DNA of 64,000 bases from Candidatus Peregrinibacteria bacterium Greene0416_19 (GCA_007375735.1 VMEW01000001.1:11831-75830); one strand, 5' to 3'. Numbered from the stretch's first letter, positions 15,183 to 64,000 are shown. Notes: a model not told the origin generated them from the letters alone. A program made the numbers and translations.

Positions 15183-17999
15183 GTGCAACAGCGAACCGTC
15201 CAGATCCTCACCTACGCCCTGCTGGCTGCTTTGCTGACGTGGGGGGTGTATGCGGTGATTGCCTACATCGGCGCGCCACTCCACTCCGCGGTGCTGGCAC
15301 CGGATGACGCGCTTGCAGCCGTTGATGCCGCCTGCGGGGACAAGAATCTCTTCTGCCGCGGCCTGCAGACGCTCCTGCCGTTCCTCGTCTTCACCGTCAC
15401 CCGCGCGGCTCCTTTTCTGTGGTACGCGGTGTTGAGCCTGGTTGCGTACGGTGTCTTTGTTGGTTGGAAAGCCGCGCAGTCGGGGAGCGGGAGGTTTTCG
15501 CTGCGCATCCGACCTTGGCATGTCTTCGTGTGGTTCCTGATCTCGCTCTGGGCGGTCTTCCTGGCTCTCAGCCACCTCAGTACCGCCGAACTACCGGTGC
15601 GGAAGATGGTGGAACCGCGGCCGGAAGTGTACGCCTCGGTGAGCGCAGAAACCCTGAAAGTGCTCAAAGAAAACTTCGATGAATTGAAGAACAGCGATTG
15701 CCTCTCCTCCGAGGTGGAGATGTTGGGGAATGTTCCCGTCTACACCATGAAGGGAACGTGCGTGCAGACCGCGTTCGTGACTCGTGTGCTCAGTCAGGTC
15801 CTCATTGCCATCATCTTCTTATTCGAGCTGCTGCTTGCGGGGCACACCGTTCTGATGCTCCTGCGTCTGCGGCCACGCAGTCTGCTGCTCGAAGGCATGC
15901 TGAGTGTCGGGATCGGCGTATACGTGTGGATCTTCGCCCTATGGCTTCTCGCTATCTCGTCGCTCTTCACCGCCAATGCCGGCTGGCTGTTGGTCATCGC
16001 TGTTCCCATCACATGCTTCCGGAGCGTCCTCTACTGGGCTGAGCGATTTTGGCGGCACGAATGGGAAGTACATCTCCGCTGGAGCAGCCCGCTCATTCTG
16101 CTGGCATGGTTGCTCATCAGTTACCTGGCATTCAATTTCCTGACCGTCGTCCGCCCGTTCCCGATCGGATGGGATGATCTGGGCAGCTACCTGAACCGGC
16201 CGCGACTGCTCGTGAGCTACGGGACATTCATCCACAGCATGGCCACGTTCCAGTGGGAGTACCTGACCGCGCTCGGTTTCCTGCTGTTCGGCTTCGCCAA
16301 TCCCTTCGCCGCCACGGCCTCCATGATCATCAACTGGACGGAGGGTCTGCTGGCCGTGCTGACGGTGTACCTGTTCACGAACCAGTTCCTGGGCCGCGGC
16401 CGGGGGATACTCGCGGCGCTGCTCTACTACTCGCTTCCACTTGTCGGTCACTTCTCGTTCGCGGACATGAAGATCGACAATGCCGTCTTCACCATGGCGG
16501 CGCTCGGGCTCCTGGCACTCTTTCTCTTCCTTTTTCCCACTGCCGAGGAGGCGGATCAGGAAGGAACCGATCCTCCCTGCCCGGATCTGCGGCTCCTGCT
16601 GCTCAGCGGACTCTTCATCTCCGTCGCGTTCGCCATGAAGTCAACGGCCATTATGACTCTCATGGCGCTTGCTGCGATTCTGGTGGCGGCGCGGTTGCAT
16701 TGGACGGCATTCATCAGCATGTCCGTTCTGATCTTCGTCCTCTTTGCGCTGCAGGGGGTGCTGGGTGTGGGTGACGTTGCCCGGCGGCTCTTTGGAGCGG
16801 AGGCCGATCTGTCCCGGACCACGTTCGTCGTGACCGCCGTTATCATCGCCCTGATTCCGGCGATGTATGCGGCATTCCGCGGCCGCGAGCGGCTGCTCTC
16901 CACCTTCCTGTACGGCGGCATCATCGGCGCCTGTTTCCTCGCATTCAACTTCCCGTGGATCCTCTACAATAACATCCAGAATGGCACCGGTACGCTGCGG
17001 CTGGAGATGGGCGCGCCCAATCGTTTCACGCCGGCCATTTCCCTCCGCGGAAAGGCAGACGTGAATGACAAGGGACAGGACATCCGCGTCCTGCCGCCCG
17101 AGCTGGCCGTTAACCCCGATCACCCGCTGTGCAAGGCATCGGGGGCGAAGGAGGAACTGGACCGCTACTGGGGCTTCCGCGTGGGATGGACACACTACCT
17201 AACGCTCCCGTGGCGGACGGTGATGAACCTGGATTCCGGCGGGTACTACGTGACGACCGCCGCCGCGCTGCTGCTCTTCCCGCTGCTCCTGCTCCTGCCC
17301 TACTTCTGGACCCGCAAGGGACGCTGGATGCGTTCCCTGTTTGGGGCGACGATCCTCATTCTCCTGGAGTGGATGTTCCTCGCCAACGGCATCCCGTGGT
17401 ACGGGGTGGGTGTCTTCCTTGGCCTCGCGATCGGTCTTGAGGTCCTCGTCGCCCGCGCGCCCGATATCCTGAGCAAAATCACGGTTTCCATCCTCATCAC
17501 GCTCTCACTGATGGCGTCCTTCGCCATGCGGTTCTGGCAGTTCGACCAACAGCAGAACCTGATCGAGTATCCGATGGGCAAGATCTCCGCCCGTGCGCTC
17601 TCCCAGCGTACCATTCCCTGGTACGAACCCATCCAGCAGATCGTAGTCGAACGGCATGAGAAGATCCCCAATCGTCCCTACCTGTACCGCATCGGGACGT
17701 TCATCCCGTACTTCATTCCCAAGAATCTGGAGACGATCGGCGTCACCGATCACCAACTCGATTTCTTCAACTGCCTGTACCAGGATCGCAATCCTGAACT
17801 CATGCTCAAGCGGCTGAAGACGCTCGGCTTCAACAGCATCATCTTCGACACGAACACGGCGACGATCGAGCGCGACGAACAGGGATCGCTCCATAAAAAA
17901 GTGCAGACATTTCTGGACTTCGTGAACACCCCGTCACTGGGCTTGCAGGTGCTGGTGAATGATCCTGGGAGCGGGGTGGCGTTTCTCCTTATTCCCTAA
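15183..17999 (+). CDS. 938-aa polytopic membrane protein, putative GT-C-fold glycosyltransferase with C-terminal soluble domain
   Basis: More than 15 hydrophobic segments. Acidic loop motif WDDLGSYLNRP resembles the DDx/DExY loop of ArnT/PMT-type GT-C enzymes. It sits directly upstream of a Dpm1/GtrB-like GT2. The fold assignment is an inference. Confidence 0.6.
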   Translation: MQQRTVQILTYALLAALLTWGVYAVIAYIGAPLHSAVLAPDDALAAVDAACGDKNLFCRGLQTLLPFLVFTVTRAAPFLWYAVLSLVAYGVFVGWKAAQSGSGRFSLRIRPWHVFVWFLISLWAVFLALSHLSTAELPVRKMVEPRPEVYASVSAETLKVLKENFDELKNSDCLSSEVEMLGNVPVYTMKGTCVQTAFVTRVLSQVLIAIIFLFELLLAGHTVLMLLRLRPRSLLLEGMLSVGIGVYVWIFALWLLAISSLFTANAGWLLVIAVPITCFRSVLYWAERFWRHEWEVHLRWSSPLILLAWLLISYLAFNFLTVVRPFPIGWDDLGSYLNRPRLLVSYGTFIHSMATFQWEYLTALGFLLFGFANPFAATASMIINWTEGLLAVLTVYLFTNQFLGRGRGILAALLYYSLPLVGHFSFADMKIDNAVFTMAALGLLALFLFLFPTAEEADQEGTDPPCPDLRLLLLSGLFISVAFAMKSTAIMTLMALAAILVAARLHWTAFISMSVLIFVLFALQGVLGVGDVARRLFGAEADLSRTTFVVTAVIIALIPAMYAAFRGRERLLSTFLYGGIIGACFLAFNFPWILYNNIQNGTGTLRLEMGAPNRFTPAISLRGKADVNDKGQDIRVLPPELAVNPDHPLCKASGAKEELDRYWGFRVGWTHYLTLPWRTVMNLDSGGYYVTTAAALLLFPLLLLLPYFWTRKGRWMRSLFGATILILLEWMFLANGIPWYGVGVFLGLAIGLEVLVARAPDILSKITVSILITLSLMASFAMRFWQFDQQQNLIEYPMGKISARALSQRTIPWYEPIQQIVVERHEKIPNRPYLYRIGTFIPYFIPKNLETIGVTDHQLDFFNCLYQDRNPELMLKRLKTLGFNSIIFDTNTATIERDEQGSLHKKVQTFLDFVNTPSLGLQVLVNDPGSGVAFLLIP

Positions 18000-18030
18000 G
18001 GATCCCGACGATATCGAGGAGAAAACGCCG

Positions 18031-18066
18031 TTCCTCGGACTCTTCGGTTTCCTCGGACTCTTCGGC
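18031..18066. repeat. tandem 18-mer TTCCTCGGACTCTTCGG(T/C) x2
   Basis: Units at 18031-18048 and 18049-18066. The reverse complement CCGAAGAGTCCGAGG matches 3386-3400 at 14 of 15 positions. Confidence 0.8.
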
Positions 18067-18157
18067 CTTCGCCGGCCGTAGTCACTGAGGCATTCCAGGG
18101 GATGTGCTGCAATTTCCAAAGTGGCTCCGGCCGACGGAGGTCGGTATCCTTACAGAG

Positions 18158-18823
18158 ATGATTATCGCAGTCATACCGGCCTACAACGAAGAGTCCCGCC
18201 TGGCTCAGGTGGTGCGTGATGCGCGGAAGTTCGCCCAGAAGGTCATTGTTGTGGATGATGGATCGACCGACGGCACAGCTGAGGTTGCGAGGCATGAGGA
18301 GGCGACCGTCGTGCGCCATGTGCAGAATTGCGGCGCGGGAGCCGCGACCATGACCGGCATCGAGGCGGCGCGGACGGCAGGGGCCACGGTGATCGTCACG
18401 CTCGACGCCGACGGGCAGCATGATCCACACGACATCCCCGCCCTGCTGAGACCGGCGGAGGAGGACAAGGCCGACATCGTCTTCTCGAACCGGTTCGGCC
18501 AGCGCAATCGCATCCCGTTCACGCGCCGTCTGTTCAACGCAATCGGGAACGTCGTGACGTTCGTCGCGACGGGCAAATGGGTGAGTGACAGCCAGAGCGG
18601 CTTCAAGGTGTTCGGCCCTCGGGCGCTCAGGGAAATCCAGCTCCGCATGAGCGGCTTCGAGTTCTGCACCGAGATCGTCCGCGAGGCGGCCAAGCATAAA
18701 TGGCGTGTCGCGCAAATTCCGACGAAGGTCGTCTACTCCGAGTACACCATGGCGAAGGGGCAATCGTTCGCCTCGGGGGTGAAGACGGCTCTCAAGATTC
18801 TGCTGCGGTCGTTCCTCCGGTAA
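18158..18823 (+). CDS. GT2 glycosyltransferase, Dpm1/GtrB-like (polyprenyl-phosphate sugar synthase type)
   Basis: IIAVIPAYNEE, VVDDGSTDGT and DADGQHDPHDIPALL motifs. ATG 18158 lies 7 nt after TATCCT 18145-18150. Confidence 0.85.
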   Translation: MIIAVIPAYNEESRLAQVVRDARKFAQKVIVVDDGSTDGTAEVARHEEATVVRHVQNCGAGAATMTGIEAARTAGATVIVTLDADGQHDPHDIPALLRPAEEDKADIVFSNRFGQRNRIPFTRRLFNAIGNVVTFVATGKWVSDSQSGFKVFGPRALREIQLRMSGFEFCTEIVREAAKHKWRVAQIPTKVVYSEYTMAKGQSFASGVKTALKILLRSFLR

Positions 18824-18833
18824 CATATCCCCT

Positions 18834-19193
18834 ATGAAGCTCACCCCCTACCAAATCGTCGCCCCCCTCATCGCCCTCCTAGCGGTCGTGTACGCGTGGA
18901 ACCTGGTGTTCCGGGGCAAGAAGACGGTGTGGGAAGCGAGTTTCTGGACCCTCTTCTGGGGGGCCATCGCGTTCGTAGCGCTCTTCCCCAACACGCTGGG
19001 ATACCTGTCCACCGTTACGGGGATCGAGAACCAGGAGAACGCCGTCATCGTCACCTTCCTCGGCATCCTCTTCTTCATTGTGTTCTACCTGGTCATTCGT
19101 CTGGAGGAACTGGAGCAGCGCCAGACGAGGATGGTGCGGGCGATGGCACTGCGCGAAGCTGAAATGAGTGGAAAATTGAAAACAGAAAAATGA
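18834..19193 (+). CDS. DUF2304-like small membrane protein
   Basis: 119 aa with 3-4 TM helices and a charged C-terminal helix (RLEELEQRQTRMVRAMALRE). Its position after a GT2 is typical of the GT2+DUF2304 pairing. Confidence 0.7.
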   Translation: MKLTPYQIVAPLIALLAVVYAWNLVFRGKKTVWEASFWTLFWGAIAFVALFPNTLGYLSTVTGIENQENAVIVTFLGILFFIVFYLVIRLEELEQRQTRMVRAMALREAEMSGKLKTEK

Positions 19194-19245: not shown

Positions 19246-20394
19246 ATGCAGGCCATCCTCCTCATCAGCCCTTACTTCCGCGAGGAACACCGCTGGATGG
19301 TGAGCACGGTCAAGCTCGCGGAGCTGTGGCAGCGGCTGGGGTACCGGGTCATCGTCGCGTGCATGGGGGCGAAGACGGGGAGAGAGGCGGTGTCCGACAC
19401 GCTCACGATCTACCGCAAGAAAGATTTCTTCATTCCGGATCCATGGAACACGGGCATCGCATTCGGCTTCACCGGTATGGCCCGCCGGATCATCCGGGAG
19501 GAGCGGCCGGATATCATCATCGTCAACAAAGTCCTGTTCTGGACATCGCTCACGCTCATTGCGCTCCGCGCGCGCGGGATACATGCGCTGTTATTGACCG
19601 ATGCGCTCGTTGGGATCACGTGGATGCCCCGCGGAAGGCTGCCGCGGATCGTTGCGCGGATCGCCGCGTGGACGGTGGGATGGATCATCCTGCGCTGTGC
19701 CGCTCGGATCGTGACGTTCCATCCGCAGCCGGGAAAGGTTCTCAAGCGGCTCGGAGTGGCGGGGAAGACGCAGGTCGTTCCGACGGGGATAGATCTTGGA
19801 CCATTCAGGGACTCGGAACGTGAGACTCGGGACTCTGGTTCGAGAGTGACAGTAACGTATCTGGGGAGATTGGAGTCCGTGAAAGGGGTGGACGACTACC
19901 TGGCGGCGGCGGTAGAGCTGAAGAAGGAGCATCCGGGGGCGAAGTTCCAGGTCGTCGGCTGGTATAAGGAGGGACATCCCCTTGTGGCACAGTACGAACG
20001 CGAGGTCCTGTTCACCGGACTGAGACACGACATCGCGGCGATTCTTGCAAGCACCGACATCTTCGTTCTCCCGAGCTACAGCGAGGGCCTCAGCAATTCC
20101 CTGATGGAAGCGATGGCGAGCGGCTGCGCATGCGTGGCGTCGGATGTCGGCGGCAACGCGTACCTCATCCAGAACGGCGTATCGGGATTTTTGTTCCCGG
20201 CCGGAGACCGGCAGTCGCTTGCGGCCCACATCCGGCGGCTGATCGAAGATCCTCACAAGCGCAAAGCGATGGGGGAGGCGGCACAGCGGAGGATCGCGCA
20301 GTCGTTCGCTTGGGAGATCGTGGGATCTCTGTACGATCGCCTGTTCGCTGAGATGACGCCTAGCAGCCCTGCGGCTCCAGACCGATATTGTTGA
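19246..20394 (+). CDS. GT4 (GT-B, Glycos_transf_1) glycosyltransferase
   Basis: C-terminal E-x7-E region: LPSYSEGLSNSLMEAMASGCACVASDVGGN. Confidence 0.85.
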   Translation: MQAILLISPYFREEHRWMVSTVKLAELWQRLGYRVIVACMGAKTGREAVSDTLTIYRKKDFFIPDPWNTGIAFGFTGMARRIIREERPDIIIVNKVLFWTSLTLIALRARGIHALLLTDALVGITWMPRGRLPRIVARIAAWTVGWIILRCAARIVTFHPQPGKVLKRLGVAGKTQVVPTGIDLGPFRDSERETRDSGSRVTVTYLGRLESVKGVDDYLAAAVELKKEHPGAKFQVVGWYKEGHPLVAQYEREVLFTGLRHDIAAILASTDIFVLPSYSEGLSNSLMEAMASGCACVASDVGGNAYLIQNGVSGFLFPAGDRQSLAAHIRRLIEDPHKRKAMGEAAQRRIAQSFAWEIVGSLYDRLFAEMTPSSPAAPDRYC

Positions 20395-20835: not shown

Positions 20836-21978
20836 ATGCGAGCGCGGATCGTCATCCTGTCGGCATTCGCCACCCCCTACCGCAGCGGCGCGGAGGCGTG
20901 CGCGGAAGAGATCGCGAAGCGACTCCTGCCGCGCTACGACGTCACGATCGTGACGGCGCGAATGCGGAGGGATCTGCCGCGCTCCACGAAGATCGCCGGC
21001 GGCGTGCCGCTCCTGCGCGTCGGTATCGGGAGCGAGCGACTCGATCCGTGGCTCTTCCCGCTCCTCGCGCCGTTCCATGTCCGCCGGCTGCGGCCGGTCC
21101 TGATCCACGCGATCCTGGAGACGTTCGCGGGGTTGGCACTGCACTGGTGCGGATTCTTTTCGAAAAAATCCAAGCGGCTCCTCACGCTGCAGACGACCAA
21201 CCGCAGCTTTCTCAAGTCGACCATCCTGCGTTCGCCTGATGCCGTCACCGCCATCAGCTCCGCACTTGTCCGGTCCGGCAGGGAGCGCGGACGGACGGAC
21301 ATCGAACTCATCTCCAACGGCGTCGATCTCCCCGCACTCCGCCAGGCTTGTGAGCGGTACCCGAAGATGTCCGGGAGAATCCTCTTCGTCGGCAGGCTCG
21401 AGCCGATGAAGGGGATCGATATCCTCCTGCGCTCATGCGCCGAAATTTTCTCGGAACCGGGAGCCCGGGGCGTAAAGCCCACGTGGGGGCCACGCCCCCT
21501 TTACGGGGCTCCCGGTTGCATGGATGTGAGGATCGTCGGGGATGGCTCACAGCGCCGGTCGCTTGAAAAGCTGGCACATGGCCTGGGCGTCGCCGGGCAC
21601 GTGCAGTTCCTGGGCTACCTCCCTCCTGCCGCCGTCTGTCGCGAATTCGCGCAAGCGGAAATATTTTGCGGGCTCTCGATCAGCGAGGCGATGGGGAACG
21701 TGTTCCTGGAAGCACAGGCTGCTGGCTGCGCGGTCATCGGCACGCGCGTGGGCGGGATTCCGGACATCGTCAAGGATGGCGAAACGGGGCTCCTCATTCC
21801 CCCGAACGATGTGAATACCGCCGCATGGGCGCTCAAGGCGCTCCTCACCGACGCACATCTCCGCTCGCGGTTGCAGGAAGCGGCACGGCGACACGCGGAA
21901 GAATACGACTGGGATATCGTCGCCGGCAGGTATGCAACTGTGTATGATCGGCTGCTCCCATCAGTCGCTCATGCCTGA
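20836..21978 (+). CDS. GT4 glycosyltransferase carrying an in-frame palindromic insert
   Basis: E-x7-E region: LSISEAMGNVFLEAQAAGCAVIGTRVGGIPDIV. Residues ARGVKPTWGPRPLYGA are encoded by the repeat at 21466-21511. Confidence 0.85.
   Translation: MRARIVILSAFATPYRSGAEACAEEIAKRLLPRYDVTIVTARMRRDLPRSTKIAGGVPLLRVGIGSERLDPWLFPLLAPFHVRRLRPVLIHAILETFAGLALHWCGFFSKKSKRLLTLQTTNRSFLKSTILRSPDAVTAISSALVRSGRERGRTDIELISNGVDLPALRQACERYPKMSGRILFVGRLEPMKGIDILLRSCAEIFSEPGARGVKPTWGPRPLYGAPGCMDVRIVGDGSQRRSLEKLAHGLGVAGHVQFLGYLPPAAVCREFAQAEIFCGLSISEAMGNVFLEAQAAGCAVIGTRVGGIPDIVKDGETGLLIPPNDVNTAAWALKALLTDAHLRSRLQEAARRHAEEYDWDIVAGRYATVYDRLLPSVAHA
21466..21511 (+). repeat. 46-nt palindromic element, copy 1 (intragenic, in-frame)
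   Basis: CGGGGCGTAAAGCCCACGTGGGGGCCACGCCCCCTTTACGGGGCTC. The exact reverse complement is at 22759-22804. It contains the CCCACGTGGG palindrome and a GGGGCGT/ACGCCCC stem. Confidence 0.9.
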
Positions 21979-22351
21979 TATCCCCTCGCTCATCGAACGT
22001 TGGGATACGCAGATGAATCGACGGAGCGCGTCCGACGATTGTTTCCTCAACCACGACCATGCGGCGCGGGCACTCCTGACTCTACTCGAGGAGATGCTGG
22101 CGCATCCCGCCGCCGCCCGTGCATTCGTACTAGCCAAAGCCGAGCGGCTCATCGCACCGGACCGTTTGCTGTTTTTCGCGACCGCCGTCGCTGCGGAGCT
22201 GTTTTCAATCTACGTCAGACTCCATGCCACCTTTCACGAAGATCCTCTCACGCATGACGACCTTGCCGCCGCCGCACGAGCTCTGCTGCCCGGAACAGAC
22301 TCTCAAACGTCCCCGCATCCATCCATTCCTCCCGCAGCACCGTTGCCTTGA
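21971..22351 (+). CDS. hypothetical helical protein (uncertain)
   Basis: The ORF has GC-rich third positions over its first two thirds. Its last ~100 nt overlap the convergent nucleotidyltransferase gene. Start uncertain (21932/21944/21971). Confidence 0.3.
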   Translation: MPDIPSLIERWDTQMNRRSASDDCFLNHDHAARALLTLLEEMLAHPAAARAFVLAKAERLIAPDRLLFFATAVAAELFSIYVRLHATFHEDPLTHDDLAAAARALLPGTDSQTSPHPSIPPAAPLP

Positions 22352-23003
22352 GTGCCCCGCGTTCCAGGTATGCCCTGCTTACATCCGTGATCTCGATCTC
22401 TCCACGAGGCGATGGCGGGAGCTTCCGGATGATATCGAAGCAATGTTTATCGTACACGTAGCATCCTGTCACTGCGAGATCGCTCTTGGGTTTCGTCGGT
22501 TTTTCTTCAATGGATATGATGCGATTGCCCTCCATCTCCGCCACGCCAAACCGTTCAGGGTCCGTCACTTGCTTGATGAACACATGGCCGCCTGCTTCGA
22601 ATGACTTGATGACCGGTGACAGATCATCGAAATACACGTTGTCTCCCAGGATGGCGCAGACGCTGTCGTTGTCGGCGAACTCTTCGGCGAGACCCAGTGC
22701 CTGTGCGATGCCGCCGGGCTTCTCCTGCACTTTGAAGGCGAACTCGCAGCCGAAGCGCGAGCCCCGTAAAGGGGGCGTGGCCCCCACGTGGGCTTTACGC
22801 CCCGACCCCAGGAACCGCGCGATCTGCTCCATATGCTCGGTGCCGGTCACCACCGCGATTTCCCGGATGCCCGCGGAGAGCAGCACCTGGAGCGGGTACT
22901 CGATGAGAGGCTTGTCATAGACCGGGAGCAGGCTCTTATTGGTGATCTCGGTCAGGGGCTTCAGCCGGGTGCCGGTGCCGCCGCAAATGAGGACTCCTTT
23001 CAT
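22248..23003 (-). CDS. sugar-1-phosphate nucleotidyltransferase (RmlA-like, short form) carrying an in-frame palindromic insert
   Basis: MKGVLICGGTGTRLKPLT (GxGTRL), VQEKPGGIAQAL and WMDAGT motifs. Residues GRKAHVGATPPLRGS are encoded by the repeat at 22759-22804. Confidence 0.85.
   Translation of the reverse strand: MKGVLICGGTGTRLKPLTEITNKSLLPVYDKPLIEYPLQVLLSAGIREIAVVTGTEHMEQIARFLGSGRKAHVGATPPLRGSRFGCEFAFKVQEKPGGIAQALGLAEEFADNDSVCAILGDNVYFDDLSPVIKSFEAGGHVFIKQVTDPERFGVAEMEGNRIISIEEKPTKPKSDLAVTGCYVYDKHCFDIIRKLPPSPRGEIEITDVSRAYLERGALKATVLREEWMDAGTFESLFRAAELVRRRQGRHA
22759..22804 (-). repeat. 46-nt palindromic element, copy 2 (intragenic, in-frame)
   Basis: GAGCCCCGTAAAGGGGGCGTGGCCCCCACGTGGGCTTTACGCCCCG is the reverse complement of 21466-21511. 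Confidence 0.9.
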
Positions 23004-52479: not shown

Positions 52480-52480
52480 G

Positions 52481-56289: not shown

Positions 56290-58131
56290 ATGTGCGGCAT
56301 AGCGGGATACACCGGCATCGATGAGCGGGAGTACCTCCAAAAAATGACCGACCGGCTGTTCCACCGCGGCCCGGATGACGGCGGGGAATACCATTCCGCG
56401 GAAGATTGCGTGCATCTTGGCATGCGTCGACTGGCGATTGTGGATATCAAGGATGGCGTGCAGCCCATGACGACGGCCGACGGCCGGTTCTGCATCGTGT
56501 ATAACGGTGAAATATTCAATGCGCCGGAACTGCGGAAAGAATTGGAATCCCAGGGCAGAGCATTCCGCACCGACCACTCGGATACCGAGGTCATCCTCCA
56601 GCTCTATGCGCGCGACGGCGCCATGGCACCCGGCCGGCTCAACGGCATGTTCGCATTCGCCATCTACGATCGCGATCGGCGCACCCTCTTCTGCGCACGG
56701 GATCAGGCCGGCATCAAGCCATTCTTCTACAGTGTCGGTCCGGACGGACGGTTCTCCTTTGCATCAGAAATCAAAGCTTTGTTGTTGCTTCCCTGGGTCG
56801 AGCGAGCGATCGACCGCCAGGCGGTGGCGGACTTCCTCAGCTTCCAGGCCATACCTGCGCCGCGAACTATCTACAGCGCCATCCGCAAGCTGCCGGCGGG
56901 TGCCAGCCTGATCTACTCCCTTGCCGATCACTCCGTTTCCGTTCTGCCATACTGGACACCGCCGGTGGACCTGTACCGCCGTGATCCCCTGCGCGCCGAT
57001 CCACGCGAGTATCCACGCATCATCCGGGGCGCCTTCGAGCGGGCGGTGAATCGTTGGTCCACGAGCGACGTACCGATTGCCTATTCGCTCTCCGGCGGTA
57101 TCGATTCCTCCGCCGTCGTCGGTGCGAGCGCACATATTCTGAAAGGTCCGCTCGCGACGTACACGCTCGGCTTCACCGATAGCCCGGATCTGGATGAGCG
57201 CGCGCCTGCGCGGGAGGTGGCAGCGATGTGGAACACGGATCACCATGAAATCCTGCTGACGGAGCAGGATCTTCTCGGCTCGCTCGATGCGATGGCGGAT
57301 GCGCTCGATGAGCCGTACGCCGGAGGCCTGCCCTCCTGGTTCGTGTTTCGGGAGATGGGCAGGCACGTGAAAGTGGCCATGACCGGCACGGGTGGCGACG
57401 AGCTCTTCGGGAATTACGGGAAATGGCTGGCGCACGAGTGGGGCGGCAAGCGCCTCACGCGCATCCGCACGTTCCTCCGTAACGGCGGCAGCATGCGCCA
57501 CCTCCTCGCCTCTCCCCACGGAGCCCTCCACTACCCGTACTTCACCGATGCCGCCAAACAATCGCTCCTCACCCCGGCATTCGCATCGGGACTCTCCCCC
57601 TCCACAGCATTGCTCGAACACTTGTGGCGCGCGAGCCCCGATGCTGATCCCAGGAGCAGGGTTGCCTTCATGGACTTCCAACTGCAGCTGCCCGAGGAAT
57701 TTCTCTTCATGACGGACAGGTTCTCCATGGCGCACTCAGTGGAAGCCCGCACACCGCTCCTCGACCGGGAACTCGTCGAGACGGTGTTCCGCATCCCCCC
57801 GGAAGCGCGTACGACGAGCGGATCCCTCAAGCGGCTCTTCATCGCCGCCGTCGCCGACCTGCTTCCGCCGGCTGTCCTCTCCTCGCGCAAGCGGGGGTTC
57901 GTCCTGCCCGCCGGCCGGTGGCTCCGGGGGCGGCTCCGGCCGCTCGTGGAGGATCTGTGCAATCCTTCTTCCCTGCGGACGCAGGGCATTTTTCAGGAGT
58001 CCGTCTTCGAGCAGATCGTCCGTCCGCATCTCTCGGGCGAACGAAACCTCGACTGGCAACTCTGGACGATCCTGAGTTTCCAGCTGTGGTACGACCACTT
58101 CATTTCTCCGTCGCGGGTTTCCGTGCGTTGA
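56290..58131 (+). CDS. asparagine synthase (glutamine-hydrolysing)-like amidotransferase
   Basis: MCGIAG N-terminus (Cys2 nucleophile) and PP-loop SLSGGIDSS. 613 aa from ATG 56290. Confidence 0.9.
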   Translation: MCGIAGYTGIDEREYLQKMTDRLFHRGPDDGGEYHSAEDCVHLGMRRLAIVDIKDGVQPMTTADGRFCIVYNGEIFNAPELRKELESQGRAFRTDHSDTEVILQLYARDGAMAPGRLNGMFAFAIYDRDRRTLFCARDQAGIKPFFYSVGPDGRFSFASEIKALLLLPWVERAIDRQAVADFLSFQAIPAPRTIYSAIRKLPAGASLIYSLADHSVSVLPYWTPPVDLYRRDPLRADPREYPRIIRGAFERAVNRWSTSDVPIAYSLSGGIDSSAVVGASAHILKGPLATYTLGFTDSPDLDERAPAREVAAMWNTDHHEILLTEQDLLGSLDAMADALDEPYAGGLPSWFVFREMGRHVKVAMTGTGGDELFGNYGKWLAHEWGGKRLTRIRTFLRNGGSMRHLLASPHGALHYPYFTDAAKQSLLTPAFASGLSPSTALLEHLWRASPDADPRSRVAFMDFQLQLPEEFLFMTDRFSMAHSVEARTPLLDRELVETVFRIPPEARTTSGSLKRLFIAAVADLLPPAVLSSRKRGFVLPAGRWLRGRLRPLVEDLCNPSSLRTQGIFQESVFEQIVRPHLSGERNLDWQLWTILSFQLWYDHFISPSRVSVR

Positions 58132-59119
58132 GGAGGATGCCGTTCCCGCCGCGGCGGATGGACACGTCCGCCAGGTCCGTGCGGCTGCACCATTCCCGCA
58201 CGGACGCGATGGTTTGCGGAAAATCATACCGGGCGGAGAGGGCGTCGAAGGTATCGAGGATCGCCCACTGCACCAGCTGCTCCCGGCTGAGGGGAAGGAT
58301 GCCGGTGTAGTTCCAGCACGGCACGAGGAGCGGGACGATGCGCCGCAGCACCGGGATCCGCCGCATGGCATTGTCGATGGGGAACCACAGCGGAACGTAC
58401 CACTCAGCGATCCCGCGGAGGAGCGATGGAGGGAGGCGCTTCGTGAGCCAGCGGTAGAGGAATTTCGACTGCCATCGGTCGGGCAGCGGCCGCCGCCTCG
58501 ATGGTACCCAGCGGCGGTACACGTCCGCTGCGATCTTCCCGCCCGGCCTGAGCGGGGGCAGGAGGCAGCGGAACGCCCGCTCGGGGTCCGGCGTGTGCTG
58601 GAGCACACCGTAGCAGAAGACGTACTCCACCGAAGACGGGGCGATCGGCAGACGGAACACATCGGCCTGTAGAATGTGCAGTCGCGGGTGCGGCCAGTGA
58701 TTCGCGGCGCAGGCGTCGACGGCGCTGCTGTAGTCCATGGCAATCACCTCCGCGCCGGCTGCGAGCAGGATTTCTGTGAAGCGCCCCGCGCCGCACCCCA
58801 CTTCCAATACCCTCTTCCCTGCAAGTTCATCCGTCCGCCATCCCGTTCCCTCATGGAAGCGGTCACGGCTGATGTGCGTGCCATTGCGGCTGTCGAGCTG
58901 CACGAGCCGGTAGCGGTTCCACTGCAGGCCGAAATTTTCCGTGTATCCGTCATCCTGCACGAAGCGGGGGATGCCGTTGCAGATGGCGTAAGTCTTCCCA
59001 TTCTCTCCGTGCAGCCCCCCCTCCATCACTTCCGCGCCTTCCTGCAGGGTCATCTGCTCAAGCGAGAGCGGGCCGCCGGTGCCGGGATCGCGGAGGAACG
59101 GGAGGAGGGAACGGTGCAT
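58100..59119 (-). CDS. SAM-dependent methyltransferase with N-terminal Trm112-like zinc-ribbon-type segment
   Basis: LLPFLRDPGTGGPL...CNGIPRFV followed by motif I VLEVGCGAGRFT. Start ATG 59119, 4 nt after the upstream stop. Confidence 0.8.
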   Translation of the reverse strand: MHRSLLPFLRDPGTGGPLSLEQMTLQEGAEVMEGGLHGENGKTYAICNGIPRFVQDDGYTENFGLQWNRYRLVQLDSRNGTHISRDRFHEGTGWRTDELAGKRVLEVGCGAGRFTEILLAAGAEVIAMDYSSAVDACAANHWPHPRLHILQADVFRLPIAPSSVEYVFCYGVLQHTPDPERAFRCLLPPLRPGGKIAADVYRRWVPSRRRPLPDRWQSKFLYRWLTKRLPPSLLRGIAEWYVPLWFPIDNAMRRIPVLRRIVPLLVPCWNYTGILPLSREQLVQWAILDTFDALSARYDFPQTIASVREWCSRTDLADVSIRRGGNGILLNARKPATEK

Positions 59120-59123: not shown

Positions 59124-60764
59124 TCAGTGGGATGCGAGGTAATCCTCGTCCTGCGATCGCAGTACCCAGTCGCGGAAGGCGCGCAAGTCCGGCGCCGCGG
59201 CAAGATCGGGGAGCGATGCTGCGCGGAGGATCACGTTCTGATCGAGGGGATGGCCGAGTTTGCTGAACGATGACTGCACCATCTCCCACGTATGGAACGT
59301 GAGGGGACGGAGCCGGAAGAGCGCGTGCGCATGACGGCGGGCGAGCGTGGTTTCCTCCGGCGTCAGGAGCGGAATATCCTCGATACGCCGAAGCTTTTCC
59401 AGATATTCCTGCGATGAAGCAGAATCATTCGTGAAGCCCAGGCCCGAATAGCGCCCCGTGCCGGCCGTCAGGACCGGGATGCCGAAGCACGGTGCCTCGA
59501 TGCCGATGGTGCCGCGCACCGTGATGCAGTAGTCGGTGATCGCGAAGAAGCTGTAGGTGCTGATGTCGGTGTCCGGCGCAACGACCGTGATGTGGGGCGG
59601 CAGCGTAGCGAAATTGGCGTCGAGCGCGATGACATCGCGCGGCTGGGCCGTAATCCCGAGCTGTTTCATCTTCCATACGTAATCAGGGTGCAGCTTGATC
59701 ACCCAGTTGACCCGGTCGTTGCCGCAGGCGACCTTCACCGTCTCGATGAGCCATTTCTCGTAGTCTTCAAACAGGTTCGTGCCGTAGAAGAACGTCGCAT
59801 CCCAGAGGACGTGTGAAAAGATGACGACCGTCTTCTTCGCGGGGTCCAGACCGAGCTGCGACCGCACCGCGTCTGGGTTCTTCAACTTCTTCCCCTCCAA
59901 GAGGAATTTCCGGTTGAACCACGTGCCCTCGGCGTAGGACCGGCGGAGTTCGGCTATGAACGATTCCTCTGTCTCTGCGGTCCATGGCAAGCGCTTGATC
60001 CGCTCCCAGGCGGACGGCGATACCGATGCGGCATGCACGTCGGCGTTTTCCAACGTGTATCGCTTGAGAAACATCGAATCGCGCGTATGTGCGTGCACGT
60101 ACTGGATGCAGGGACAGCCGTGCGCGAGCGCGGCGTCGAACACTTCGGCGTAGGGGGAGTACCCCTTTTCCAGAAATAATACGACGTCGGTATGCTCTGC
60201 ATCGAAGAACGCGTGCGCGGCTTCCGCAGCCTGAAATGAGCGCGGGAGCAGCCCCCGCAGAAGCTGCTGTGCCTCCGGATCGTCGAACGCAACACTCCCC
60301 TGGCGCAGCCTGCGGACGATGGTCGAGAGCGTGTGCTTTCCCACCCGCACGCCACGATGCGTGCAGCGCATGAATTCGTGGAACGTCGATGAGCGCAGGG
60401 CGGCTTCCAGACGATCCTGTGGGACCCGCGAGGCATGCTGATCCATGAGATCATCGAGGAACACGAATTGATCGATGCCCATTGACCGGAAGTACAGTTG
60501 TGCCCGTTTGTTCGTCCGGTCGGTCAGCACCGTGATTGCGGATCCATCCAACTCAAGCGCCTTGCCGAACACGCCTTCCATCTTCACCTGAGCGACCCAG
60601 TCGGTCAGGCTCACGATCAGGATCTTCTTCCCATTTCCAGCGGACCGGGATTGGTGGAGAAAGAAGACTTTCCATCGGAAGGACAGATAATCCCACAGCA
60701 CCGCCAGGTCGTCCGCCAGGCGCCGCCGGTCGAACAGCCGGCCGAAACGCCGGATGACGCTCAT
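59124..60764 (-). CDS. GT-B-like protein resembling capsule-synthesis (KpsS/KpsC, Capsule_synth) enzymes
   Basis: 546 aa. KKILIVSL N-terminal domain. C-terminal domain with VIFSHVLWD, WVIKLHPDY and ITVRGTIGIEAPCFGIPVL. Its ATG overlaps the neuA stop (ATGA). Family assignment from motif memory only. Confidence 0.5.
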   Translation of the reverse strand: MSVIRRFGRLFDRRRLADDLAVLWDYLSFRWKVFFLHQSRSAGNGKKILIVSLTDWVAQVKMEGVFGKALELDGSAITVLTDRTNKRAQLYFRSMGIDQFVFLDDLMDQHASRVPQDRLEAALRSSTFHEFMRCTHRGVRVGKHTLSTIVRRLRQGSVAFDDPEAQQLLRGLLPRSFQAAEAAHAFFDAEHTDVVLFLEKGYSPYAEVFDAALAHGCPCIQYVHAHTRDSMFLKRYTLENADVHAASVSPSAWERIKRLPWTAETEESFIAELRRSYAEGTWFNRKFLLEGKKLKNPDAVRSQLGLDPAKKTVVIFSHVLWDATFFYGTNLFEDYEKWLIETVKVACGNDRVNWVIKLHPDYVWKMKQLGITAQPRDVIALDANFATLPPHITVVAPDTDISTYSFFAITDYCITVRGTIGIEAPCFGIPVLTAGTGRYSGLGFTNDSASSQEYLEKLRRIEDIPLLTPEETTLARRHAHALFRLRPLTFHTWEMVQSSFSKLGHPLDQNVILRAASLPDLAAAPDLRAFRDWVLRSQDEDYLASH

Positions 60765-61447
60765 CGTTGCCGCAGAAGGAACTCCGCGTAGGCCAGGTCG
60801 TCCGGGCCGTCGATATCGACCGAACTGCGCGCGTCCATCACGAAGGGGATCGAGCGGTCTCCGTAGAGCGTTCCCGCTTCGATCACTGTCCGCCGCACGA
60901 TCAAGATCGCCGGACCGTTGCGCGCGTAGAATCGTTCCTTGTCCTGTCTCCGGAGGACCAGGGGGCCCTCGGAGAGCGGCGCGAGCAGTCCGTCCTTCAG
61001 TTGCATGAGCGAAGTCGGGCTGAAGCGGTGCGGCACCTCCGTCACGCTCACGACGGTGTCGACGTTCTTCTTTTCAAAGAGAGTGAGTGCCGCATCGATG
61101 TGTGCCGTCGTCCGTAGCGGAGAGGTCGGTTGTAGGAGAGCGATTGCATCGGGAACGTACCCCTCGATCCGATCGAGTTCACTCAGAATGTGCTGGAGGA
61201 CAGGCAGGATGGGCGTTGCGTCTTCGGCAAGATTCGCCGGTCGCAGGAAAGGGCATGGCACCCCGAGTGATGCGCCCAGCGCCGCAATTGCCGGATCATC
61301 GGTCGAGAGGATGGCGCGTCCGAGCACGCTCCCAGCCGCAGCCTCGCACGTGTGGGCCATGAGCGGCTTCTCGCCGAGCGGTGCCACGTTCTTATTGGGG
61401 ATGCCCTTCGAGCCGCTGCGCGCGGGGATGATGCCCAGGATTTCCAT
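60761..61447 (-). CDS. neuA: acylneuraminate (nonulosonate) cytidylyltransferase
   Basis: GIIPARSGSKGIPNKN N-terminal motif. 228 aa. Confidence 0.85.
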   Translation of the reverse strand: MEILGIIPARSGSKGIPNKNVAPLGEKPLMAHTCEAAAGSVLGRAILSTDDPAIAALGASLGVPCPFLRPANLAEDATPILPVLQHILSELDRIEGYVPDAIALLQPTSPLRTTAHIDAALTLFEKKNVDTVVSVTEVPHRFSPTSLMQLKDGLLAPLSEGPLVLRRQDKERFYARNGPAILIVRRTVIEAGTLYGDRSIPFVMDARSSVDIDGPDDLAYAEFLLRQR

Positions 61448-61453
61448 AGTCGG

Positions 61454-62608
61454 TCAGTAGGTCAGTTGCTTCTGTACGGAGAGAGTCGCCGTGGAGAGGA
61501 TGTCCGCGATCTTTTCGCCAGCCGTTCCGTCCCCGTAGAGTGTGTCCGGCTCGTACGGGCCGTGCGCCAGCTGCTTTTTCACCGCCGAGACGATCGCCGC
61601 GTGATCGTGACCGGCATCCAGGATATTCGCTCCCCGGTCACGCCCGGTCTGGCGTGTGCCGACGTTCACGACCGGCACCCCCAGGAAGCTCCCCTCGCGG
61701 ATGGCGGCGCTGGAGTTGCCCACCATGCAGGCGCAGTGGCGCATGATGGGGATGAAGGTTTCCACCGGCAGATTCTTGTAGAAGCGTATGTAGCTGTCGT
61801 CTTTGTGTTCGCGGAAGATGCGGATGCCCTGCGCAATGTCTTCCGATCCGGCGTCGGCATTGGGCCAGAAGAAGATGGTGGGGATGTGTAACTCCTCGAT
61901 TGCCTTGAGCGTTTCTTCAATCTGGTCGCGGCCCTGCCCGTACTCGGTGGTGACCGGGTGCTGCATCACGAGCAGGTAGGGCTTGCGGAAGTCGATACCT
62001 CCTCCCACCCCCTCCTGAAGGAGCAGCGGCAGTGACGCCGGATCGGAGTGCAGCCGCGCCACCTCCGCCACCAGGTCCATCCGCGGGCAGCCCACCACGT
62101 GCACCCGCTTCGGATCCTCCCCCATGCGGATGATGCGATCGGCGGCCCGGTCGTTGGATGGGAAGTGCAACTGGGCCAGCTTGGTGACCGCATGTCGGAT
62201 GCTCTCGTCGATGGTGCCGCTCACCTCGCCCCCCATCGTGTGGGCGAGGGGGATGTTCATGTACGCCGCGGCCACCGCGGTCGCCATCGTCTCGAAGCGG
62301 TCGCCCACCGTCACCACCGCGTCCGGCCGCAAGCGGTCGAATACCCGCGCGAGCTCGATCAGCCCTAGCCCGGTCGACTGCGCCATCGTCAGCGGTGTCT
62401 CGCCCTCGATCAGCATGTGCACCCGCTCGTCGGGGGCAAAGCCGTCTTTCTCCATGAATTTGACCACCGATCCATACCGGTCGAGCAGGGCCGATGCGCC
62501 AACCACCACCTGGAGCGCGAGATCCGGATGCGCCTGTACCGCCCGCATCACGCTCTTGATGGAGCTGTAGTTTGCCCGTGAGCCGACGACGACGCAGATT
62601 GTGCGCAT
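61454..62608 (-). CDS. neuC: UDP-N-acetylglucosamine 2-epimerase (hydrolysing) type
   Basis: MRTICVVVGSRANYSSIKSV N-terminus, HTMGGEVSGTIDE and GNSSAAIREG motifs. Confidence 0.85.
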   Translation of the reverse strand: MRTICVVVGSRANYSSIKSVMRAVQAHPDLALQVVVGASALLDRYGSVVKFMEKDGFAPDERVHMLIEGETPLTMAQSTGLGLIELARVFDRLRPDAVVTVGDRFETMATAVAAAYMNIPLAHTMGGEVSGTIDESIRHAVTKLAQLHFPSNDRAADRIIRMGEDPKRVHVVGCPRMDLVAEVARLHSDPASLPLLLQEGVGGGIDFRKPYLLVMQHPVTTEYGQGRDQIEETLKAIEELHIPTIFFWPNADAGSEDIAQGIRIFREHKDDSYIRFYKNLPVETFIPIMRHCACMVGNSSAAIREGSFLGVPVVNVGTRQTGRDRGANILDAGHDHAAIVSAVKKQLAHGPYEPDTLYGDGTAGEKIADILSTATLSVQKQLTY

Positions 62609-62619
62609 AGGGAATTGGC

Positions 62620-63627
62620 TCAGGAGAACTTTTGGAGATCAGATGGTATCATGACAGTATCAGCCGGGATGTCCCGTGTTGCCCTCGTACCGATCACGTC
62701 CGAAATCCTGGCTGCTGGGATCCCGGTGCCTGGCTTCTTGATGCCGAGCATGGCCCGTGTGACGGTTGTGCCTTTCTTGATGGGAACGAGTGCAGCCACG
62801 CTCTTCTCAAATGTCTGCTTCATATTCTTGAATCGCGATGCATCGGATTTGTCCACGGGATGATGCAGCATCGCCTCCGCCGCGCGGATGACCTCGCACA
62901 TCTGGCGAAACTCAGCCGGCTCGAGCGAATGCTTCGCATCGCTGCCGTACATGTGCCGACTGAAGGTGAGGTGTTTCTCAATGACGCTCGCGCCCAAGGT
63001 CACCGCCGCGATCGGCGCCGCGAGTGTCATCGTGTGGTCGGACAGGCCGACGGGGCATTGGTACCGCTCGCGCATTTCCGCAAGCAGGTTCAGGCCCACC
63101 TGCTCCGGGGGGCACGGATACTCGGAGGTGCACTGCAGCACGGTCAGATCGTTGCCGCCGCGACGGATCGTCTCCACCGCACGATCGAGCTCTTCCCATG
63201 AACTCATGCCCGAGGAGAGGATGACCGGCTTGCCCGTCGCTGCGATCTTTTCAAGTAAGGGGAGATTCGTGACCTCGCCCGACGGGACTTTGTAGCGCGC
63301 AACCCCGACCTTCTCGAGCAGATCGACCGCCTCTTCGCTGAAGGGGGAAGACAGGAACTCGATGCCTGTTCCGTCAGCATGCTCTTTCAGTTTCTTCCAT
63401 TGTTCGAGCATGAAGCCGGTCCGCCTGAAGTACTCGTAGCGCGACTCGTCTTTGAAGTAGGGGGACGACGGCGCGTCCTTCGTTGTTTCCGCATCGGCGA
63501 TGTGCGTCTGGAACTTGACCGCGTCGGCGCCCACGTCCTTCGCCAGCTCGATCAATCTCTTGGCGTTTCCGAAGCTCCCGTCGTGGACGGAGCCGATCTC
63601 GGCGATGATGAGGACGCGGGTGCTCAT
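62620..63627 (-). CDS. neuB: N-acetylneuraminate (nonulosonate) synthase with SAF domain
   Basis: IIAEIGSVHDGS and AVKFQTH motifs, with a C-terminal SAF-like segment (GTGIPA...IG). Confidence 0.9.
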   Translation of the reverse strand: MSTRVLIIAEIGSVHDGSFGNAKRLIELAKDVGADAVKFQTHIADAETTKDAPSSPYFKDESRYEYFRRTGFMLEQWKKLKEHADGTGIEFLSSPFSEEAVDLLEKVGVARYKVPSGEVTNLPLLEKIAATGKPVILSSGMSSWEELDRAVETIRRGGNDLTVLQCTSEYPCPPEQVGLNLLAEMRERYQCPVGLSDHTMTLAAPIAAVTLGASVIEKHLTFSRHMYGSDAKHSLEPAEFRQMCEVIRAAEAMLHHPVDKSDASRFKNMKQTFEKSVAALVPIKKGTTVTRAMLGIKKPGTGIPAARISDVIGTRATRDIPADTVMIPSDLQKFS

Positions 63628-63724
63628 TGGATGCTATTGAAGCATGTTTGCGGCTGAACGGCCATACCCACGTCGTCCTTTCACCGCTTCTGGTTGCCGG
63701 TCTTTGGCGGTATGATGGTCGTCA

Positions 63725-64000
63725 ATGCGGAAGCTGGTCATCATCGGCTCGGGCGCCCAGAGCATCGACATTCTGGAGACGGTTCATGCCATCAATGAGC
63801 GACAGCCCACATACGCTCTCACCGGTTTCCTGGATGACGACGTGTCGCTGAGGGGAAAAGAGATATTCGGGCTGCCCATACTCGGCCCCATTGCGGACGG
63901 AGCATCTCTGCCTTCGGACACCTTCTTCGTCAGCGGAATCGGGTTATTGTCCCTCCTCGCCCGCCGGCCCGCCATCATTGCGCGCACCGGCGTCAGCCCC
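63725..64000 (+). CDS. NeuD/PglD-like sugar acetyltransferase, 5' partial (runs off the window)
   Basis: Not in the ORF track because there is no stop. Hand translation gives MRKLVIIGSGAQSIDILETVHAINERQPTYALTGFLDDD..GKEIFGLPILGP, typical of the NeuD/PglD N-terminal domain. ATG lies 8 nt after TATGAT 63711-63716. Confidence 0.6.
   Translation, partial: MRKLVIIGSGAQSIDILETVHAINERQPTYALTGFLDDDVSLRGKEIFGLPILGPIADGASLPSDTFFVSGIGLLSLLARRPAIIARTGVSP

Follow-up and report, generated by a model that had tools for sequence, protein, structure and literature searches.

A conserved Peribacteria glycan locus with several polyprenyl-phosphate-sugar synthase/GT-C modules

The experimentally studied glycosylation systems closest to the locus described here are the four-component system GacI/GacJ/GacK/GacL, which serves the GlcNAc side chain of Streptococcus pyogenes, and mycobacterial PpgS (Rv3631) with Rv3632. 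GacJ and Rv3632 belong to the DUF2304 family and bind and stimulate GacI and PpgS, and the initiator GacO lies outside the gac cluster in streptococci. In Lactococcus lactis the GacI and GacJ homologues WpsA and WpsB start the oligosaccharide of the polysaccharide pellicle (PSP) on undecaprenyl phosphate (C55-P), and enzymes of the GT-C class of glycosyltransferases (GTs) polymerize and transfer it. Likenesses extend to the three-component systems GtrA/GtrB/GtrV, CsbB/GtcA/YfhO and ArnB/ArnC/ArnT and to the archaeal Agl proteins of S-layer N-glycosylation (AglJ/AglD, AglB, AglS). The locus in question occupies positions 15183-64000 of a 64,000-nucleotide stretch (positions 1-64,000, hereafter the window) within a 230,958-bp European Nucleotide Archive (ENA) contig of the metagenome-assembled genome (MAG) Candidatus Peregrinibacteria bacterium Greene0416_19 (class Peribacteria, candidate phyla radiation (CPR)/Patescibacteria), an uncultured groundwater bacterium with a small genome, and it leans heavily on lipid-monophosphate sugar donors and GT-C transferases.

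Members of the CPR are believed to lead a life attached to host cells, and their surface chemistry, central to this lifestyle, is almost uncharacterized. With genome size taken as that of a relative (∼1.1 Mb), the locus indicates that one CPR class gives ∼5% of a ∼1-Mb genome to envelope glycans. That Peribacteria put much into envelope sugars, among them sialic acid and rhamnose, and into S-layer proteins has been reported (Anantharaman et al., 2016); no description of GT-C/GtrA-type glycosylation in CPR was found in the literature. A preliminary description, made from the sequence of the window, had proposed a 49-kb glycan island that combines several polyprenyl-phosphate-monosaccharide/GT-C modules with many cytoplasmic glycosyltransferases and tailoring genes, and that follows an assembly logic outside the standard schemes. 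The modular composition was borne out by the present analysis and the assembly logic was not, as set out below.

Open reading frames (ORFs) were scanned with Pfam and NCBIfam, and the ENA gene calls, used as an independent comparison, agree with the ORF map and refine several starts. From 15183 onward, 35 glycan-related genes make up 78% of the 49 kb (Table 1). The scans reproduce the seven GT4, four GT2 and one GT8 proteins, the GtrA and the DUF2304 protein counted previously, and also find RmlA/RmlB, three further short-chain dehydrogenase/reductase-type epimerase/dehydratases, a LegC-family aminotransferase, two methyltransferases, three GDSL-like proteins, a carbamoyltransferase with SxtJ-like and DUF5989 partners, an AsnB-like amidotransferase, a PglD-like acetyltransferase, a protein with S-layer homology (SLH) and GerMN domains, and a NeuB/NeuC-like/CMP-synthetase operon with a 546-aa KpsS-like protein.

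Table 1. Features of the window, with the profile matches on which their assignment is based (aa, amino acids; TM, transmembrane segment)
Feature	Position	Strand	Basis and remarks
Housekeeping genes (M16 peptidase, MprF-like flippase domain, NDK, CtpA, VanW, RecO, FtsX-like, tRNA-Thr, NifU, NifS)	1-15 kb		
MprF-like protein	1910-2914	+	334 aa, 7 TM
FtsX-like protein	9869-10897		Housekeeping flank
ORF, probably spurious	11674-12597	-	Overlaps tRNA-Thr
tRNA-Thr (GGT)	11787-11861	+	
GT-C938	15183-17999	+	938 aa, ∼16 TM; NCBI Greene041619_30
GT2a	18104-18823	+	PF00535 7.6e-28; motif DADGQHDP; no TM
DUF2304 small membrane protein	18834-19193	+	PF10066 6.3e-21
GT4	19246-20394	+	Glycos_transf_1 6e-34; syntenic class-wide
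GT4	20836-21978	+	Glycos_transf_1 9e-36; syntenic class-wide
RmlA-like glucose-1-phosphate thymidylyltransferase	22248-23003	-	PF00483 1e-52; TIGR01207 1.4e-72, below cut-off
RmlB dTDP-glucose 4,6-dehydratase	23145-24134	+	TIGR01181 385.5 bits, above cut-off of 365
GT4	24523-25707	+	Syntenic
GT4	26048-27193	+	Syntenic
GT4	27211-28224	+	C-terminal GT-B half only; syntenic
GT2b	28230-28973	+	PF00535 1.4e-25; motif DADLEYAP; no TM
GT-C459	28986-30365	+	PF13231 (PMT_2) 7.3e-15, above threshold; PF02366 9e-7; S37-D38 after TM1
342-aa soluble protein	30583-31611	-	Homologue in several Peribacteria loci
GT-C397	32086-33279	-	GT87 6.4e-5, below threshold; D33-D34 after TM1
238-aa single-TM protein	33350-34066	-	Gene call, no family match
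GT8 glycosyltransferase	34164-34898	-	PF01501 1.3e-19; 244-aa gene call
GT-C536	34975-36585	+	536 aa; C-terminal soluble domain; invariant LNSDE after TM1
GT2c	36808-37587	-	PF00535 4.5e-17; motif DSDEYASP
GtrA-family small membrane protein	37630-38073	-	PF04138 1.1e-13
GT-C470	38140-39552	-	PF13231 7.5e-12, above threshold; ArnT model 1.4e-5; D34-E35 after TM1
S-adenosylmethionine methyltransferase	39658-40473	-	Family scan
LegB-like NAD-dependent dehydratase/epimerase	40480-41490	-	Family scan; LegB match below cut-off
GT4	41483-42610	-	Pfam; divergent from next
GT4	42677-43837	+	Pfam
DegT/LegC-family sugar aminotransferase	45031-46167	+	PF01041 4e-123; TIGR04181 1.3e-99
GT2d	46136-46915	+	PF00535 4.6e-29; motif DCDFSMPP; no TM
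GDSL/SGNH hydrolase-like protein	47263-48273	-	PF13472 4.9e-10; one, N-terminal TM
SLH + GerMN wall-anchored protein	48536-50074	+	PF00395 4.4e-22; PF10646 2.6e-12
IS200-type Y1 transposase	50180-50635	+	PF01797 1.9e-9; full-length-sized
NodU/CmcH-type carbamoyltransferase	50719-52479	-	Unit 50719-52869 with small SxtJ-like and DUF5989 proteins
GDSL-like 393-aa protein	52874-54055	-	
304-aa NAD-dependent epimerase/dehydratase	54321-55235	+	
318-aa protein	55239-56195	-	No family match
AsnB-like amidotransferase	56290-58131	+	
Methyltransferase	58100-59119	-	
Nonulosonic-acid operon	59124-63627	-	546-aa Capsule_synth/KpsS-like protein, CMP-sugar synthetase, NeuC-like 2-epimerase, NeuB-family synthase
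PglD-like hexapeptide acetyltransferase, N-terminus	63725-64000	+	PglD_N 1.7e-4; runs past window

Three of the GT2 proteins, GT2a, GT2b and GT2d, fall in the Dpm1/GtrB/ArnC clade, as had been proposed from their motifs, which were recovered; the best matches are to PpgS, AglJ and ArnC in NCBIfam and to PfDPMS and ArnC in the PDB. GT2a matches PpgS best and over its full length (4.4e-51, 173 bits vs a cut-off of 370), followed by AglJ and ArnC, and finds PfDPMS and ArnC in the PDB; it is probably a polyprenyl-phosphate-sugar synthase of the Dpm1/PpgS/GacI type, the substrate probably being an N-acetylhexosamine. The DUF2304 protein, whose gene starts 10 nt after that of GT2a, is predicted by analogy to be its GacJ/Rv3632-type activator partner, the family being one of activators and not of proven flippases. 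GT2b (best AglJ, 2e-23; ArnC, 1e-18) is a predicted synthase of the AglJ/ArnC type, and GT2d, which matches a dolichyl phosphate (Dol-P) hexose transferase, ArnC and AglJ in NCBIfam and PfDPMS in the PDB (4.6e-30 over residues 17-243), one of the DPMS/ArnC type. All of these NCBIfam scores lie below the equivalog cut-offs and thus do not indicate the sugar. The start of the GT2d gene is overlapped by that of the DegT-family aminotransferase, an arnB-arnC-like pair that is kept in three other loci (L007, L044 and L061). GT2c shares an operon with the GtrA-family protein, a candidate polyprenyl-phosphate-sugar flippase, and with GT-C470, a trio also kept in L007. The four GT2 proteins are 221-262 aa long, none has a predicted transmembrane segment, and they would therefore depend on membrane partners.

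All five of the polytopic proteins that had been proposed, as four or five, to be GT-C-like are supported as such: GT-C459 and GT-C470 by PMT_2 matches, GT-C397 by GT87 likeness, and GT-C938 and GT-C536 by predicted structures, in which comparison with Foldseek confirmed the GT-C fold. Each carries an acidic pair (DD, DE or SD) just after the first core transmembrane segment. No pairwise BLAST similarity was detected among the five, which therefore represent five distinct families, and a recent duplication as their origin was rejected on the same ground. Profile searches of three lineage-specific GT-C alignments against PDB sequences gave nothing useful, so that fold comparison was needed. GT-C938 has no Pfam match of its own, whereas many of its homologues (>450 full-length at ∼50% identity) have PF13231, and the alignment contains an invariant motif, RPFPIGWDDLGSYLNRPR, at 324-341. 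Its AlphaFold2 (AF2) model (pLDDT 85, pTM 0.89) finds AglB (3e-5) and ArnT (4e-4), and also STT3, Pmt4 and ALG12, with a probability of 1.0 to AglB, ArnT and STT3. This core begins near residue 300 and is preceded by ∼300 extra membrane residues (window 15183-16080), which comprise ∼6-7 transmembrane helices, small beta elements and the invariant cysteines C51, C58, C173 and C193, suggesting a disulfide-stabilized extracytoplasmic module. GT-C536, without a Pfam, NCBIfam or PDB sequence match, yields an AF2 model (pLDDT 94) with Foldseek matches to AftA (2e-6), PglB (1e-5), STT3 and DPY19 at a probability of 1.0. Although AglB, PglB and STT3 are among the top matches of GT-C938 and GT-C536, their identity as oligosaccharyltransferases was rejected, since a regular-expression search found no WWD/WWDxG motif in any of the five GT-C proteins; the modelled likeness to STT3, PglB and AglB is at the general GT-C_A level only.

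Two of these families have little or no Pfam coverage and include natural fusions to GtrA. The family profile of GT-C536 recovers 1067 cluster representatives, and ten distant relatives that were sampled have no significant Pfam match over the GT-C part; in one of these, P0401, a GtrA domain lies at the N-terminus. GT-C536 is, as modelled, a member of a GT-C family that lies outside every Pfam model and numbers more than 1000 sequence clusters. Among the 143 homologues of GT-C397, PF09594 occurs in some and PF04138 (GtrA) is listed for seven; P0291 is a full-length homologue with a C-terminal extension that carries a precomputed PF04138 match. The GtrA fusions, together with PF09594 in homologues and the sub-threshold GT87 match, point to a GT87/DUF2029-like GT-C; GT-C470 is a PMT_2/ArnT-like one. 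Together with the class-signature GT-C938, these 536-aa and 397-aa families are what is new here, a modest gain, and the natural fusions offer a functional handle on both of the latter.

Rather than a variable island, the left part of the locus is a core that is syntenic throughout the class. Relatives of GT-C938 were found in 235 Genome Taxonomy Database (GTDB) species genomes, and synteny was determined in the best 80 of these, all of which are Peribacteria/Peregrinibacteria except for one contig labelled Kiritimatiellales. Among loci with enough sequence, GT-C938, GT2a and DUF2304 are directly adjacent in 64 of 67, and NifS precedes GT-C938 in 61 of 61. One gene order, GT-C938-GT2a-DUF2304-GT4-GT4-rmlA-rmlB-GT4-GT4-GT4(half)-GT2b, is seen repeatedly in the class, and over the left 13 kb the order is nearly invariant in the 80 species. 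GT-C938 is thus the signature GT-C of the class, in a family almost confined to Peribacteria, and its strict tie to the GT2+DUF2304 pair is of use beyond this genome. The 49-kb glycan island of the preliminary description therefore stands as a glycan region and not as an island, the left 13-15 kb being conserved core; its right boundary does not hold either, as sugar genes run on over at least another 9.6 kb beyond the window (flank L001, with more nonulosonate and sugar genes). The 10 kb upstream (L006) are housekeeping. Further to the right, the middle block (GT-C536, GT2c-GtrA-GT-C470, GT4, DegT-GT2d and GDSL) is syntenic in one other genome (L007). The contig labelled 'Kiritimatiellales bacterium' (L009, JAIPIN010000003.1) carries the complete block NifU-NifS-GT-C938-GT2-DUF2304-GT4-GT4-rmlA-rmlB... 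at 50% identity and is probably a mis-binned Peribacteria contig. Composition varies within the core: in the GT4 genes at 26048 and 27211, GC at third codon positions is 0.64-0.65 vs 0.75-0.81 in neighbours, and the 26-36 kb stretch is lower in GC, yet both genes are syntenic class-wide.

The gene sets correspond to multicomponent glycosylation through polyprenyl-phosphate sugars, in which a Dpm1-type GT2 and a GT-C are encoded together: GT-C938 adjoins GT2a, GT-C459 follows GT2b by 12 nt, and GT-C470 lies in the GtrA+GT2c operon. The analogy previously drawn with GtrABV, ArnC/ArnT and Ppm1/PMT holds, with GacI/GacJ(DUF2304)/GacL and PpgS/Rv3632 as the nearest studied systems. As in these, a Dpm1-type GT2, a DUF2304 activator and a polytopic GT-C are encoded together, and as in the gac cluster no initiator is linked and rml genes and cytoplasmic glycosyltransferases share the locus. 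Unlike the gac cluster, the locus has neither a Wzx (GacK) nor an ABC exporter (GacDE), and its GT-C is a 938-aa protein with the extra N-terminal membrane domain, found near-exclusively in Peribacteria. WpsA/WpsB-WpsJ offers a further parallel, a GT2+DUF2304 pair in an operon with several cytoplasmic glycosyltransferases and GT-C enzymes, and a precedent for polyprenyl-monophosphate priming, although the lactococcal cluster has its own Wzx (WpsG) and the Wzz-like WpsH, both absent here. GT-C470-GtrA-GT2c forms a gtr-like operon, the DegT-GT2d overlap mirrors arnB-arnC, and GT2b-GT-C459 makes a synthase/transferase pair; the C-terminal transmembrane helices of GtrB and ArnC are, however, absent from all GT2 proteins here, GT2c is nearer to GmaR and SunS than to GtrB, and the acceptors must differ from those of ArnT because a CPR monoderm has no lipid A. 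Likeness to the archaeal Agl pathway lies in the AglJ-like GT2 proteins, in the presence of several Dol-P or polyprenyl-phosphate sugar synthases, in a GT-C with a C-terminal soluble domain and in the S-layer/SLH context, whereas the missing WWDxG, AglJ scores far below cut-off and a bacterial source set the locus apart.

No phosphoglycosyl transferase (PGT; PF00953, PF02397), MOP flippase, Wzy/WaaL or ABC-2 protein was detected in the window, in the 9.6 kb past its end or in the 10 kb upstream. The preliminary description had reported the same absence for the region 15183-64000 and had held that a canonical initiator just past the window end would refute its proposal; none lies in those 9.6 kb, and no polytopic protein is encoded there. 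ABC_tran and ABC-2 were likewise not found, the sole FtsX-like protein lying in the housekeeping flank with no ATPase. With no PGT initiator, MOP flippase or Wzy_C, the Wzx/Wzy-dependent set is not in the locus, and synthase-dependent assembly is not represented, as no GT2 is fused to a multi-transmembrane channel. The closed genome of the relative Ca. Peribacter riflensis, a member of the same class, consulted through its published annotation table, places these absences in context. Its homologous locus (NifU _866, SufS _865, a 937-aa protein _864, DPM1-like _863 and K09153 _862) has no linked initiator, and a WecA/TagO (_458), a WcaJ-like PGT (_783), a Wzx (_981) and a WaaL/O-antigen-polymerase-like protein (_371) are annotated at unlinked positions; MurJ, ABC-2 transporters and two CsaB pyruvyltransferases are also annotated far from the locus. 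Because the relative carries such genes at unlinked loci, and because unlinked initiators are normal (GacO being one), an assembly logic outside the standard schemes is unsupported; moreover, since WpsA/WpsB initiate on C55-P, the locus may already hold its initiator. The modules use known mechanisms, and current glycan-assembly schemes are not overturned.

The reading favoured here, to which about an even chance is given, takes the region as the organism's main cell-envelope glycan locus; unlinked genes would prime and export a wall glycopolymer that the multicomponent modules would decorate, proteins being decorated in addition or instead. The cytoplasmic sugar supply would comprise a dTDP-6-deoxyhexose made via RmlA/RmlB, an amino sugar and a CMP-nonulosonate tailored by acetamidino, methyl and carbamoyl groups, from which the GT4, GT8 and GT2 transferases would build the glycan. 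Three, possibly four, extracytoplasmic glycosylation modules would operate beside this. In each, a Dpm1-type GT2 lacking transmembrane segments, held and activated by DUF2304 or GtrA, would form a polyprenyl-monophosphate sugar at the inner face of the membrane; the lipid-linked sugar would be flipped, and one of the five unrelated GT-C-fold enzymes would pass the sugar outside the membrane to the wall glycopolymer and/or a secreted protein. Priming of the main chain, its flipping or export, and its ligation would most likely fall to PGT, Wzx/ABC-2 and ligase genes that, by analogy with the relative, are most likely encoded elsewhere in this genome.

Several observations weigh against this reading. 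WecA and Wzx are known from the published annotation of the relative and not from this MAG. A dedicated flippase for each module was not found: there is one GtrA, with no MOP/Wzx in the window or flanks, for up to four synthase/GT-C modules, which leaves those at 15-19 kb, 28-30 kb and 45-47 kb without a linked flippase. GT2c, although encoded beside GtrA, is closer to the protein/peptide glycosyltransferases GmaR and SunS, its best PDB matches, than to DPMS, and is by sequence not clearly of the Dpm1 type. Finally, in the 80 species, Pfam scans of representative unassigned polytopic ORFs lying no more than 10 kb to either side of the core detected no PGT, MOP flippase, Wzx, Wzy or ABC-2 protein, those scanned being PMT/PMT_2 proteins, proteins with no Pfam match or unrelated transporters.

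This last result leaves room for a PGT-independent route, a possible though doubtful alternative, in which GT2a/DUF2304 and/or GT2b would load the first sugar onto polyprenyl phosphate with no WecA/WbaP-type initiator, the GT4 proteins would lengthen the lipid-linked sugar in the cytoplasm, and after flipping GT-C938 or GT-C459 would polymerize the resulting oligosaccharide or attach it en bloc to the wall or to an S-layer protein. The GT4 genes lie class-wide in the same tight operons as Dpm1-type GT2 and GT-C genes; the spacing of 17 nt between two GT4 genes, 5 nt to GT2b and 12 nt to GT-C459 marks one operon. Such linkage fits equally well with enzymes that decorate a polymer primed separately, as is the case in the gac cluster. 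The logic of the route is that of archaeal AglJ-type pathways and of lactococcal WpsA/B-WpsJ. WpsA/WpsB initiation of PSP with polymerization and transfer by GT-C enzymes provides a precedent, although one that needs a Wzx (WpsG) within the cluster, of which there is none here. In NCBIfam AglJ ranks first for GT2b and second for GT2a, which would also suit such a route, as would the oligosaccharyltransferases AglB, PglB and STT3 among the best Foldseek matches of GT-C938 and GT-C536; TM-scores of ∼0.3-0.6, however, cannot separate the GT-C_A families, and WWDxG is missing. The absence of a PGT from the window, its flanks and the polytopic ORFs beside the block is set against a relative annotated with WecA, a WcaJ-like PGT and Wzx. 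In its fullest form, which is quite unlikely, the route would yield a class-defining Peribacteria wall glycan built wholly on polyprenyl monophosphate, with priming by GT2a/DUF2304, extension by the GT4 proteins, and movement and en bloc transfer by GT-C938. If true, the glycan would need neither a phosphoglycosyl transferase nor a Wzx or ABC exporter, the cysteine-bearing N-terminal membrane domain of GT-C938 would act in translocation or acceptor binding, and a minimal-genome symbiont would hold a bacterial counterpart of archaeal Agl logic.

The PMT_2 and PMT matches of GT-C459 and GT-C470 raise the further, unlikely, explanation that the GT-C enzymes mainly glycosylate proteins, by PMT-like O-glycosylation from polyprenyl-phosphate sugars, and that the GT4 and nonulosonate genes serve a separate polysaccharide. 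Sec-exported SLH/S-layer proteins, pilins and large cysteine-rich Peribacteria surface proteins would be the targets, and S-layer proteins and many large exported proteins have indeed been described in Peribacteria. PMT_2 also spans ArnT-like modifiers of lipids and glycans, however, and neither MIR nor PMT_4TMC, domains of GT39 enzymes, was found by Pfam in the five GT-C proteins, which gave only PMT_2 and weak, partial PF02366 matches. A protein with PMT and PMT_4TMC does lie beside the conserved block in another Peregrinibacteria genome, and an SLH protein is encoded inside the present locus, although its gene stands next to the IS200-like gene and is not among the genes found within ±10 kb of GT-C938 in other genomes. 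The nearest studied GT2+DUF2304 systems, moreover, act on polysaccharides. The protein in the other genome (L008, 3637-5385, minus strand; PMT 5.9e-27, PMT_4TMC 3.1e-16) is a bona fide GT39-type protein O-mannosyltransferase encoded a few kb from the GT-C938 block, so protein O-mannosylation probably exists in the phylum.

Finally, GC content dips to 0.54-0.58 at 26-38 kb and 46-52 kb, an IS200-like transposase is present, and equivalent genes are split over several regions in Ca. P. riflensis, as would be expected if glycan operons that are independent or were acquired horizontally had come together by chance, without functional unity or a single assembly logic. Given the near-invariant left 13 kb in 80 genomes, the syntenic middle block in L007 and the high share of glycan-related sequence, this explanation is considered highly unlikely.

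Among the remaining genes, those for a nonulosonic acid of the legionaminic/pseudaminic type comprise synthase, 2-epimerase, CMP-synthetase, 4,6-dehydratase, aminotransferase and N-acetyltransferase (in the operon, NeuB 2e-82, Epimerase_2 1e-74 and CTP_transf_3 3e-16), the acetyltransferase being a 216-aa Hexapep gene when followed into L001. LegB-like and LegC-family matches lie below cut-off, and family matches do not indicate the particular nonulosonate. The 546-aa protein of this operon, with a sub-threshold Capsule_synth match (1.4e-3) and no PDB sequence match, is a putative nonulosonate transferase; KpsS-like genes similarly flank pseI in Ca. Peribacter riflensis. Relaxed Pfam/NCBIfam scans gave nothing significant for the 342-aa, 238-aa, 318-aa, 117-aa, 138-aa and 546-aa proteins or for the 450-aa and 336-aa ORFs past its end, and the two 'unclassified GT-A-like' proteins of the preliminary description, of which the 342-aa product may be one, have no significant family match. 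A 309-aa ORF past the window end has a borderline GT2 match (7.6e-5). The GDSL/SGNH protein at 47263-48273 is a candidate glycan O-acyl esterase or transferase, and a role of the SLH protein as glycan acceptor or partner is conjecture. The IS200-type transposase lies between the SLH and carbamoyltransferase genes at a GC dip of 0.56 and hints that this part of the locus has been rearranged or is variable. The carbamoyltransferase gene is followed by those of the SxtJ-like (76 aa) and DUF5989 (52 aa) proteins, tiny conserved membrane proteins, the trio lying within a glycan locus; SxtJ is named after the saxitoxin biosynthesis operon.

In the housekeeping flank, tRNA-Thr is a single copy in the interval flanking the NifU/NifS pair, and NifU in Ca. 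Peribacter riflensis is likewise flanked by tRNA-Thr; an ORF that overlaps the tRNA was set aside as probably spurious. The MprF-like protein (NCBIfam 1.3e-65, model positions 2-304 of 841) corresponds to only the N-terminal flippase half of bifunctional MprF, with no lysyl-phosphatidylglycerol synthase domain, and could be a flippase for lipids or lipid-linked sugars in an organism thought to scavenge lipids. Beyond the other end of the window (L001 90-3337, 6.3-9.5 kb past it), genes for a SIS_2 isomerase, a TAL/FSA aldolase and an inositol-monophosphatase-like phosphatase stand in a row and adjoin those for a metallophosphoesterase and a GFO/IDH/MocA oxidoreductase, a set whose family matches suggest a route to an unusual higher or branched sugar that would feed this locus.

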